A stretch of 64,000 nucleotides of DNA, from contig CM026547.1 in assembly GCA_014905635.1 (NCBI GenBank), positions 3,720,001-3,784,000 of the forward strand, given 5' to 3'. The stretch is from Scenedesmus sp. PABB004 (taxonomy: Eukaryota). Both the position numbers and the translations under genes were made by a program. Positions 43,244 through 48,376 of this stretch are shown in pieces (within the stretch, counting starts at the first letter, position 1; each line of letters opens with the position of its first letter). The notes under the pieces are model-generated. The model was not told where the DNA came from. It did not search any database and saw only the letters and a list, made by a program, of their open reading frames with translations.

Positions 43244-45406
43244 ATGCCCGTCCACGTGAAGCGCCGCTCGCGGCGCGCCGCGCAGGTCACCGCGCTGGCG
43301 CTGCTCTCCGCGCTGGCGGCAACCGTGGGCGCCGCCGGCGGCAAGCCCGAGGCCGACCCCGTGGCGCTGTGGGTGCAGCTCATCATCAAGGCGCCCGACG
43401 GCGGCCTTTGCTCGGGCGCAGAGACGCAGTACAACGCAGCGGCGGCACTGGGCCAGGCGCTCACGTCCGACCCGATGCTGCAGCCGCGCGTGGAGTTTTA
43501 CGCCACGGACTGCCGCTTGGATTCCGCGCGCAAGGCCGTGCTGCTGACGGTCAAGCTGACCTACCCCGGCCCACTGGCGGTGCGGGCCCGCTTCATGCGT
43601 GCCGTGCGCGCCAGCGCCACCGCGGTGTGCGGCCTGCCCGGCGGCGTGTGCGACGTCATCAGTTCTGGCGTCCAGGGCGCCAGCGTGGTGGGTGCGACCG
43701 CGTCTTCCAAACCCCTCGGTGGGCCGGCGCGTGCACGGCCGGCTGCGCTGCCTGGCACGCCGCCGCGCCGGGCGCACGGCGGCGCGCCGCTGACTCTGGC
43801 CCACCGTGCGCGCCCGCCGACAGGACCGATCCCCTGCACCAGCGCGCCTACCGACAGCGCCGCGATGCGCGCCGCGGGCGTCTCCTTTGCTTCGGCGGGC
43901 TGCGCCGACAGCTGCCCCGGCTTCAAGTGCATCGTGCCATGCACAGGCCCCGGCCAGTCTGGCAGCTGGACCTCGGCCTGCCTCCCGACCGGGAAGTGGG
44001 GCGCTGCGCAGGGCGGCTGCACCCAGAGTGAGAGCGGCGGCGTGCCCGCGCGCCGCGCCGCGGCACCGCCCGACCGCGCGCGGCTCACCTCGCTCGGCCG
44101 CCTGCCCTGCGCGCCTCAGCGGGGCCGGTCAGCCCTCCAGGGCTGTCCTACACGGTCCTGGTGTATGACGCCCGCGCAATGTACCAGGGCGGCGGGTACA
44201 AGCTCTGGCGGAGCACGGCCGGCGTCACCGGCACATTTGCCGAGGTCAAAACGCCGCCGCCGGTGGGCGACGCCAGCATTCGATGGGCGGCCAGCAGCAA
44301 CCTGCAGACGCAGGTCGTCGCGGACACCAACAGCGGCGCGCTGCCCCTGCTCTCCACCGACGGCGGCTCCACGTGGCGCAGGACGACTGGGGTCGACCTG
44401 TCTACCTCCTTCGTTGACACGCTTGCGTCCTCGCGGGGTGAGCCCGCCTTTGCCAGCCCGCTGGCGCGGCGGCCGGCGCGCGGCGCCAGTGGGGCCTGGG
44501 CAGCGCAAGACGCACCACCATGTGCGCCGCGCGCCGCCGCCTGCCTGCCTCGCTCCCAACAACGCTCGGCGACGCGCACGCAGACGGCTCCCGCGCTGTG
44601 GCCGAGGTGATTAATGAGAAAACGATCGGAGACGTGTGGGTGCTGACCACAAGCACCGGCGTGTGGGTGCGGAGGAACCCCCGGCTGGGCGCCTACAAGT
44701 GGTGCTCCGTCGCCTGCGACGCGTCGTGCAACGTGATTTACACCGCCCCCTGCAGCCTCCGGCAACGCTTCGCGCTGGTCAGGTCATCTGACGGCGGAAA
44801 CACCTGGGCCAGCGTCGGCCCAACCATGTTCTGGGAGAGAGTCGTCTCCAACAACGACGGTGACCCTCGGCTGAGCCGAGCGCGCGCCCACCAGCACGCG
44901 CCCAGTCGGGCGTGGTGCAGCTGTCGCTCGCTTTGGCGCGCGCCGCTGACGCGCGTGCCGCGGCGGCGCCGCCCGGCGCGCCTGCAGGCACGCGGCTGCT
45001 GGCGGCCGCCCGCGAGGCCACGTACGTCTCCAGCGACAGCGGCGCCACGTGGGCCAATGTCAGCCGCCTTGCCACGTGGAGCAGCTATGGCGACTGCACC
45101 ATCGCGGCGCTGGCCATCGACGGCACGGGCTCGCACATGCTGGCCAGCACCGTGTGGTGCACGGGCGGGTCTGGTCGCTGCCCGGTGTGGTCGTCGCGCG
45201 ACGGCGGCGCCAGCTGGGAGGTGCGCTACAACCTGAGCTGCTCGGCCCCGGGCATCCACCACATGGCCATCAGCGGGAGCGGGGAGGTGCAGCTGTTTGC
45301 CATGGGCAGCACGTTTTACTACTCGGAGGACTACGGCGCGACGTGGCAGTCGCGCTGGGTTGGGCCCGACATCAACAACGCCGTCTCGCTCCTCATCAGC
45401 GGCTGA
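43244..45406 (+). CDS. Secreted protein, array copy 3: N-domain, 1 sushi-like module, Asp-box region; EGF-like end lost
   Basis: MPVHVKRRSRRAAQVTALALLSAL start; same intron positions as copy 2; last exon nearly identical to copy 2 until DINNA, then stops at LISG*. Confidence 0.75.
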
Positions 45407-45870: not shown

Positions 45871-46198
45871 CGCACGCAGGAGCCCCCGTCGCAGCAGCCC
45901 GGCCGTGGCGGCCGCCGCCCAGACCCGGGCGTCGGCGCGCAACGGCCTGCCCGCCGCCGCCGCCGCCGCCGGCCGCGCCGGCGGGGCGGCCTCTGCACCT
46001 AGTCGTGTTCAACGGGTGCGTTGGCCGCGCCGGAGCCCCTAGCTGACGCGCGCGGGCTCGGGTGCAGGGCCCAGCCGCCGCATCCATCAGCGCGCTCAAC
46101 TCCCCGCCCCCGCTCGCCGCCGCCCTCTTTCCGCTGCGACGCAGGTTAAAGTCGCCTGCCGGCTGTTTACCCGGCTTGGTCCTGCGTCGCGCGCCAAG

Positions 46199-48376
46199 AT
46201 GCCGTCCGCCAGCAAGCTCGAGAAGAAGGAGGCGGTGCGCGGCCGCGCCGGGGCCCGCCGCTCGCGCGGGCGGCCGATCTCGCGCCCCTGACGCCCCTCG
46301 GCCGCGTGCGCAGTACCACGCCCGCCTCTGCGAGTACCTGAACACCTACGACAAGGCGTTCGTGGTGGGGGCCGACAATGTGGGCTCCAAGCAGATGTCC
46401 GACATCCGCGCGGTGAGGGAGACCGCGGGGCGGCGCCGCGCCGCCGGCGGCGCGCCGGGCGCGGGCATGCGGCCGCCGCCGCGGCGGCGGCTGGCGCTGC
46501 TGCTGCTGCGCCGCCGGCGGCGGCCGGGGGCCGGCGGCAAGGCGGCCAGGCGGCCGGGGCCGGCGGCAGGCGGCCGGGGCGAGGCCCCGGCGGCCGGCAG
46601 CGGCGCCCCGGCGGCGGCGAGGCGGCGGCTCACGCGCGCGCGCCGCCCGCCAGGCGCTGCGCCCCGAGACCATCATCCTGATGGGCAAGAACACCATGAT
46701 GAAGCGCTCCATCCGCCTCTACTGCGAGGAGACGGGCAACGACCAGTGGGCCCCGATCCTGGACGAGCTCGTCGGCAACGTCGGCCTCATCTTCACCAAG
46801 GGCGACCTCGCGCAGGTGCGCTGCGCGTCGTGGCAGCAGCGCGACGCGCAGCGCGACGCAGCAGCTGGCGCGGGGCGCGGCGGGCGAGCGCGGCAGCAGC
46901 TGGGGCTGGACGCGCCGCGAGCGGCGGCGCGGGCAGCGGCGCGCGGCGAGGGGCGGCTGGCGGAAGACGCGGCAGCGCCAGCGGCGCCAGCGCCAGCGGC
47001 GGCGGGAGCAGCGCCAGCGCCAGCGCCAGCGGCGGCAGCGCCAGCGCCAGCGGCGGCAGCGCCAGCGCCAGCGCCAGCGCTAGCGCCAGCGGCCCCTGTA
47101 ATGGCAGAACCGCGCGGCGGCGCGGTGCCGCCGCGGTTTTGACAGGGGCCAGAGCGGCGGTGCCGATCTCCGGGGACGGGAAGCGAAACGCATATGCACC
47201 AGATCTTCGAATATCGGCACCAACATGCTGCACCCGCCGCGGCGCCCCCGCCACGCCACCCCACGCTCGCGGCGGCGCCGCGGCGCGGCGCGCGCCCTCG
47301 CCCCGGCCCACACCACGCGCCCGCCTCACGCGCCCGCCGGCCCTGCCGCGCAGGTCAAGGCCGAGATCGCCAAGTACAAGGTCGGCGCGCCCGCGCGCGT
47401 GGGCCTGGTCGCGCCCAACGACGTCACCATCCCCGCCGGCGGCACGGGCATGGACCCGTCCCAGACCTCGTTCTTCCAGGCGCGCACGCGGCGCAGCGCG
47501 CACGCGCGCACACACGCGCCGCCGCCGGGCTGGCGCGCCGTCGCGCCCGCGCCCCGGCCCGCCGCGCCCGTGCCCGCGCCCGCCGCCCGTGCGCCCGCGT
47601 CGCCCACCCCGCCCCCTCCCGCTCCCCCGCGCGCCCGCCGTCGCCCGCCAGGCGCTCGCGATCGCGACCAAGATTAACAAGGGCACGATCGACATCGTGA
47701 GCGACGTGCACCTCATCAAGGCGGGCGACAAGGTCGGCGCGAGCGAGGCGGCGCTGCTCGGCAAGCTCGGCGTCAAGCCGTTCAAGTACGGCCTCGAGAT
47801 CGTGCGCGTCTACGACAGCGGCTCGCTCTTTGAGCCCGCCGTGCTCGACATCACCGACGCCGACATGGAGGCGACCGTCGGCGCGGCGCTGTCCAACATC
47901 GCGGCGCTCTCGCTCGCGATCGACGTGCCCACGCTCGCGAGCATCCCGCACAGCGTCATCAACGGCTACAAGAATGTCCTCGCGATCGCGGTCGAGACCG
48001 ACTACTCCTTCCCGCTCGCCGACAAGGCGCGCGCCGGCGGCACGCGCGCGCGGCGGCGGCGGCAGCAGCGGGGTGGCGGCAGCAGCGGCGGCGGGGGCTG
48101 CAGCGGCGGCGGCGCAGCGGCGGCGGGGGCTGCAGCGGCGGCGGCGCAGCGGCGGCGGGGGCTGCAGCGGCGGCGGCGCAGCGGCGCCCGCGCGCCGTGC
48201 CGCCCATGCGCGCCGCGCCGCCCCCGCGCCCGCAGGTCAAGGCGTACCTCGCCGACCCGAGCGCCTTTGCCGTGGCCGCCGCGCCCGCGGCGGGCTCCGC
48301 GGCGCCCGCCGCCGCGGCGGCGCCGGAGCCCGAGGAGGAGGAGGAGGAGGACATGGGCTTCTCCCTCTTTGACTGA
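46199..48376 (+). CDS. RPLP0: 60S acidic ribosomal protein P0 (uL10); 6 exons
   Basis: [60 protein letters not shown], and C-terminal [14 protein letters not shown]. Confidence 0.98.
47091..47228 (+). ncRNA. Intronic box H/ACA snoRNA candidate (pseudouridylation guide for 18S rRNA)
   Basis: Two hairpins (47091-47150 and 47159-47221), hinge AGAGCG, ACA at 47223-47225; both pockets are complementary to conserved 18S sequences. Confidence 0.85.

Follow-up and report, generated by a model that had tools for sequence, protein, structure and literature searches.

The third intron of the gene for ribosomal protein P0 (RPLP0) in Scenedesmus sp. PABB004 very probably encodes a box H/ACA snoRNA that is the counterpart of CrACA42-5 and CrACA42-6 of Chlamydomonas reinhardtii and that guides the modification of two uridines of 18S rRNA, U301 and U378. 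The window, that is, the whole stretch of 64,000 nucleotides that was analysed (G000:C1:3720001-3784000, in a 40-Mb genome of 80 contigs), is rich in GC and in introns. An earlier note on this DNA had proposed an H/ACA snoRNA at 47091-47228 from the letters alone, and all the elements that it named were found at the places it gave. The argument developed below draws on the host gene, on the predicted fold, on the fit of two guide pockets to the rRNA of the same genome, and on related copies in Scenedesmus, in a metagenome and in Chlamydomonas.

Host gene and intron

The gene and its third intron have the following layout, in window coordinates:

46199-48376, plus strand: host gene RPLP0 (uL10/P0), six coding exons, 312 aa
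46199-46234, 46314-46412, 46654-46815, 47354-47479, 47652-48026 and 48236-48376, plus strand: RPLP0 coding exons
46816-47353, plus strand: host intron, the third coding-region intron of RPLP0, 538 nt, GT..AG ends

The host was identified as RPLP0 by the Pfam domains Ribosomal_L10, RL10P_insert and Ribosomal_60s, with matches in four of the five exons scanned, and its product matched P0 chains in the PDB (E 4e-45). Together with the exon model, and with RNA contigs of related organisms that show a 538-nt gap with GT..AG ends at intron 3 in three of four runs, these matches bear out both the gene and the intron that the earlier note had named. A search of sequencing runs found none of this organism, and the RNA evidence comes from runs of related organisms, of which ten were listed, all at shares of 0.05-0.08, and four of the ten aligned; their contigs leave 47138-47213 without cover (four runs) and are uninformative on expression of the snoRNA. 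The candidate also stands out by composition, just as had been noticed from the letters: its 138 nt form a lower-GC island with a GC content of 0.66, against 0.80 for the whole of intron 3 and 0.87-0.91 for the other four RPLP0 introns. A literature search on snoRNAs hosted by RPLP0 introns of algae found no report, and no relative of RPLP0 was found in viral contigs.

Several features of the gene are observations in their own right. Introns 4 (47480-47651) and 5 (48027-48235) start with GC and not with GT, and relatives' RNA contigs show a gap of 172 nt at intron 4. The transcript may start at a pyrimidine run at about 46124-46134 (within 46124-46198), and the 5' leader at about 46166-46183 resembles loose ends of the relatives' RPLP0 contigs, which hints at a conserved leader element. 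Imperfect short repeats of the CAGCGC/CAGCGG type occupy 46985-47090, directly upstream of the snoRNA.

Anatomy of the predicted snoRNA

The 138-nt stretch is predicted to fold into the hairpin-hinge-hairpin-tail form of a box H/ACA snoRNA, with two hairpins and z = -4.16, and none of 200 shuffles was as stable. The 5' end was inferred from the base of the stem, and the 3' end was set as ACA plus three bases. The parts of the molecule are:

47091-47228, plus strand: predicted box H/ACA snoRNA, ~138 nt, two hairpins, in RPLP0 intron 3
47091-47150, plus strand: hairpin 1, lower stem 47091-47099/47142-47150, upper stem 47109-47137
47103-47108, plus strand: pocket 1, 5' guide strand GGCAGA, predicted to pair 3' of 18S U301
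47138-47142, plus strand: pocket 1, 3' guide strand TTTGA, predicted to pair 5' of 18S U301
47151-47156, plus strand: hinge, H-box variant AGAGCG (ANANNG), directly after hairpin 1
47159-47221, plus strand: hairpin 2, lower stem 47159-47167/47213-47221, nine of nine pairs
47167-47173, plus strand: pocket 2, 5' guide strand (T)CTCCGG, predicted to pair 3' of 18S U378
47207-47212, plus strand: pocket 2, 3' guide strand TCGAAT, predicted to pair 5' of 18S U378
47223-47225, plus strand: ACA box, with three bases more to 47228

The reverse strand of the same stretch also folds well (z = -3.37), so that the strand is set by the boxes and the host gene and not by folding. In the minimum-energy structure each pocket is partly shut by pairing within itself, and two bases, U47167 and A47142, each belong to both a stem and a pocket as counted here. 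In H/ACA snoRNAs the target lies about 14-16 nt from the box. The guide-to-box spacing, which the earlier note had put at about 13-16 nt, measures 13 nt from pocket 1 to the H box and 16 nt from pocket 2 to the ACA; both values fit an H/ACA snoRNA, with pocket 2 at the long edge.

The window has 662 ACA sites, two of which passed a loose scan for two-pocket geometry; shuffled windows gave 0.2 each on average. The second of these sites (about 43854-43910) has no stable fold (z = +0.9) and was rejected as a snoRNA. The Rfam check that the earlier note had suggested gave no match in the window at gathering scores, and Rfam gave no match of the RPLP0 snoRNA to the family of yeast snR49. When the search around RPLP0 was relaxed to E 10 it returned four weak matches, one of which overlaps the snoRNA (STnc310, E 0.54), and these were taken as chance.

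Predicted targets in ribosomal RNA

The exonic 18S, 5.8S and 28S rRNA of the same genome, 5298 nt in all, was scored U by U for its fit to each pocket, a scan that could overlook sites at the edges of introns. Both pockets pair in two parts around an unpaired UN in rRNA, and each predicted site is the best that the genome's rRNA offers. For pocket 1 this is 18S U301, with 5+6 Watson-Crick pairs and a score of 11 (next best 8); for pocket 2 it is 18S U378, with 6+7 pairs, of which twelve are Watson-Crick and one is G-U, and a score of 12.5 (next best 8.5). The two target motifs, which the earlier note had already named, are both present in all five rDNA copies found in the genome. With the register held fixed, 14 of 1000 shuffled pockets matched rRNA as well as pocket 1 does and 5 of 1000 as well as pocket 2; with free registers the counts were 149 and 16 of 1000. 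The match of pocket 2 is beyond chance by itself and that of pocket 1 is not, and with 149 free-register shuffles in 1000 comparative evidence is needed for pocket 1.

Known pseudouridines of other eukaryotes bear on both sites. Of the base identities that the Arabidopsis table gives from 304 to 475, all 14 match the 18S of this alga at an offset of +3, the next best among 17 offsets giving 10, and U301 therefore corresponds to Arabidopsis U304 and U378 to Arabidopsis U381. Both Arabidopsis positions are mapped pseudouridines whose snoRNA is entered as 'nd' in Supplementary Table 3 of 2021; U304 is the equivalent of yeast U302, the region to which the earlier note had assigned its first target, and U381 is without a human or yeast counterpart (PMC8351944). 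According to a table in the available part of PMC5699541, pseudouridine 302 of yeast 18S is guided by snR49, which shares a target with the predicted pocket 1, homology not being implied. The other targets given for snR49 are 18S U120 and U211 and 25S U990, and the site U378 has no match among yeast positions (PMC5699541, in part; PMC8351944). A literature search on snR49, U302 and pseudouridine found no report, and the passages available from PMC10281867, PMC10743738 and PMC7464842 hold nothing on sites equivalent to U301 or U378, which their supplements may list.

Further copies in Scenedesmus and in a metagenome

A pattern search of the genome gave three matches in all, and its reversed control gave none. 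Besides the copy in RPLP0 there are two on contig C13, about 1.9 kb apart (L011, G000:C13:2312188-2314206, minus strand), in two apparent introns of one gene with GN3L_Grn1 and MMR_HSR1 domains, which from its domains we take to be a Nug1/GNL3-like GTPase; many introns of this gene, too, appear to start with GC. A run of 191 nt, 49 nt of which belong to the upstream flank, is identical between the two C13 copies and suggests a duplication or conversion event in the recent past. What they have in common with the RPLP0 copy is the hinge, the stem of hairpin 2, pocket 2, the ACA and the 16-nt spacing, whereas the upper loop of hairpin 2 and the flanks have diverged. In the upper stem of hairpin 1, four of the 11 pairs differ between the C13 and RPLP0 copies, and all four still pair, one of them having changed on both sides.

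The first pocket of the C13 paralogues is different, and the RPLP0 copy is the only one found with pocket 1. In the register that matches the RPLP0 copy, and with one U unpaired, it fits 18S U254 with 7+3 pairs, a position that at offset +2 (four of five identities) corresponds to Arabidopsis U256, another mapped pseudouridine without a guide (PMC8351944). This prediction is weaker than those for the RPLP0 copy: other registers find 28S sites scoring 10.5-11.5, of which 10.5 is reached by 236 of 1000 shuffles. The first pocket on C13 may be aimed at 18S U254.

Metagenome contigs were scanned with a loose pattern that included pocket 2, giving at least 120 loci, and among the 120 matches listed a single one (L013) has the full 9-pair stem around pocket 2; the others, which do not, were dropped as chance. 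L013 was selected for pocket 2 and its stem, and these two features are not independent evidence: its (T)CTCCGG strand is the same as in the RPLP0 copy but was part of the search pattern. In the lower stem of hairpin 2 six of the nine pairs have changed on both sides relative to the RPLP0 copy. Features for which L013 was not selected are the GGGGCC-AGA-N-CG hinge context and a first hairpin, and the region as a whole folds with z = -3.07. It lies between GT..AG ends just before an exon with an SLX9 domain, and its pocket 2 is one nt closer to the ACA than the 16 nt of the RPLP0 copy. In the register that gives a perfect upper stem, the first pocket of L013 prefers this alga's U301 (score 8.5, with several G-U pairs); other registers score higher, and the target was scored on Scenedesmus rRNA and not on L013's own. 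The earlier note had suggested looking for conservation in the RPLP0 introns of other chlorophytes; the homologues found sit in other genes.

The two boxes can be followed through all of these copies. The hinge has the form AGANCG in all four sequences, as AGAGCG in the RPLP0 copy and both C13 paralogues and as AGATCG in L013. It misses the last A of the strict H-box consensus ANANNA (PMC5699541, in part), a departure that the earlier note had rightly pointed out. Hinges ending in G are annotated in three of 15 CrACA entries among the matches listed from the available part of PMC5122169, and also in some land-plant entries, and on this comparison we treat AGAGCG as a putatively tolerated variant of the H box. 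An ACA follows hairpin 2 in all four sequences, and the likeness between copies stops just behind it; both C13 paralogues keep the box, and the DNA behind it has diverged.

The counterpart in Chlamydomonas

Judged by its pocket strands, this is not a new family, since its apparent counterpart has already been catalogued in Chlamydomonas reinhardtii as CrACA42, a circumstance that lowers the novelty of what the earlier note observed. The family name reportedly goes back to Chen et al. 2008. According to the supplementary entries available from PMC5122169, CrACA42 forms a single tandem array of six copies, about 1.1 kb long, whereas Scenedesmus has three single copies in separate introns of two genes. 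CrACA42-5 and -6 carry TGGCAGAACC and TTTGA in hairpin 1, and CrACA42-1 to -6 carry CTCCGGG and TCGAAT in hairpin 2, in each case as in the RPLP0 copy (PMC5122169); compared by eye, CrACA42-5/-6 and the RPLP0 copy agree in all four pocket strands and in their order. The lengths are similar as well, CrACA42 measuring 136-144 nt by its listed coordinates, and CrACA42-1 to -4 resemble the C13 paralogues in having GTGAA/TCAA in hairpin 1 (PMC5122169). The differences are that TCGAAT stands 15 nt before the ACA in CrACA42-1 to -5 and 16 nt before it in the RPLP0 copy, that the annotated hinges are ACAGCA or AAATCA as opposed to AGAGCG in Scenedesmus (PMC5122169), and that to the eye the stems and loops do not resemble those of the RPLP0 copy. 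Four ordered strands and a matching second subtype make common descent likelier than convergence; shared targets alone force shared pockets, so that orthology with CrACA42 is probable and not proven. By its pocket strands, compared by eye, the RPLP0 snoRNA is thus probably the orthologue of CrACA42-5/-6.

The set from which CrACA42 comes was reported as confined to Chlamydomonas, which its authors blame on weak homology search (PMC5122169, in part). CrACA42 has no entry among the targets listed in the available part of that source, and the name is absent from the main texts of the literature searched. Intron-nested snoRNA genes are well documented in Chlamydomonas and in Ostreococcus tauri in the available parts of PMC8226300 and PMC7671301. 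A search of the O. tauri H/ACA supplement entries for the pocket motifs found none, a weak search in that line breaks split the sequences. Among the matches listed from the PMC5122169 supplement, as far as available, no land-plant guide with pocket 2 was seen; the orphan snoR109 was considered as one and rejected, its look-alike words forming a plain stem by eye.

Proposed mechanism and alternative explanations

Going by established H/ACA biology, the snoRNA would be transcribed within the RPLP0 pre-mRNA and released when intron 3 is spliced out and trimmed; a Cbf5/dyskerin complex with Nop10, Nhp2 and Gar1 would bind it at its hinge and its ACA box. The internal loop of each hairpin would pair with both sides of one unpaired uridine of the pre-18S rRNA, and Cbf5 would turn U301 (hairpin 1) and U378 (hairpin 2) into pseudouridine. 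The genome codes for a dyskerin-type domain. All three host genes (RPLP0, Nug1-like and SLX9) concern the ribosome, and hosting of this kind would tie the supply of guides to ribosome production.

The molecule might instead be a real H/ACA snoRNA with one working pocket, either because U378 is served mainly by the paralogues, this copy mattering for U301, or because pocket 1 is inactive and a different guide acts on U301. This is unlikely, although pocket 2 does occur in three copies, its spacing of 16 nt is long, and pocket 1 taken alone is weak against the free-register null. The long spacing is common to the paralogues, however, and every copy has the same pocket 2 strands, even though the upper loop has diverged; pocket 1, for its part, is identical in CrACA42-5/-6 (PMC5122169, in part) and aims at a site that is modified in both yeast and Arabidopsis.

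We consider it very unlikely that intron 3 merely received a decayed or unexpressed copy that yields no stable RNA. The family duplicates and moves, as the identical 191-nt run of the C13 copies illustrates, but all 11 upper-stem pairs, all nine lower-stem pairs of hairpin 2 and both boxes are intact, and no other copy found has a U301 pocket. Hardest of all to credit is a chance pair of GC-rich hairpins, or a splicing or autoregulatory element of RPLP0, that is not a guide RNA at all. High-GC DNA folds easily, here on the reverse strand too, and the loose geometry scan yields its 0.2 false matches per window; such an account is nevertheless largely refuted by homologues in unrelated hosts (Nug1-like and SLX9) and in the Chlamydomonas tandem cluster, and by conservation that is centred on the strands complementary to rRNA.

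Implications for the CrACA42 family

Read as a two-pocket guide, the RPLP0 snoRNA and its relatives would extend the CrACA42-type family from a Chlamydomonas-only set to two more organisms, and would offer concrete guide pockets for Arabidopsis pseudouridine sites that have no guide in the 2021 table (PMC8351944). With one family, three ribosome-related hosts and two first pockets, they make a compact candidate case of guide RNAs that move and retarget. A broader interpretation, which we put forward tentatively and at somewhat less than an even chance, is that CrACA42 goes far back in green algae, as a guide family whose 3' hairpin is constant (for the plant Psi381 site) and whose 5' hairpin comes in two alternatives (for the Psi304 or the Psi256 site); the two subtypes would both predate the split from Chlamydomonas, and single copies would have hopped among introns of the ribosome genes RPLP0, Nug1-like and SLX9. 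If this were true, the CrACA42 pockets could serve as search templates for the guides of Arabidopsis U256, U304 and U381. What goes beyond routine annotation is this pattern of subtypes and relocation and the link to the guide-less Arabidopsis sites, the biology being otherwise ordinary.

The rDNA unit

The rDNA unit of this genome, about 11.7 kb in length, lies on contig C17 (L009, L010). Its 18S gene is interrupted by 1059 nt (L009:7652-8710, minus strand; 18S span 395-1453) that match a group I intron. The insertion begins 16 nt after the target U378, so that guide pairing and intron splicing would take place on neighbouring bases of the pre-18S rRNA. Within it, an ORF of 151 aa has a weak match to the His-Me homing endonuclease family PF05551 (E 2e-05, 25.2 bits, below the cut-off of 27). 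The 18S gene contains a second group I intron, the 28S gene of the same unit has two insertions, one of which Rfam recognises as group I, and the rDNA spacer holds a 5S gene on the same strand.
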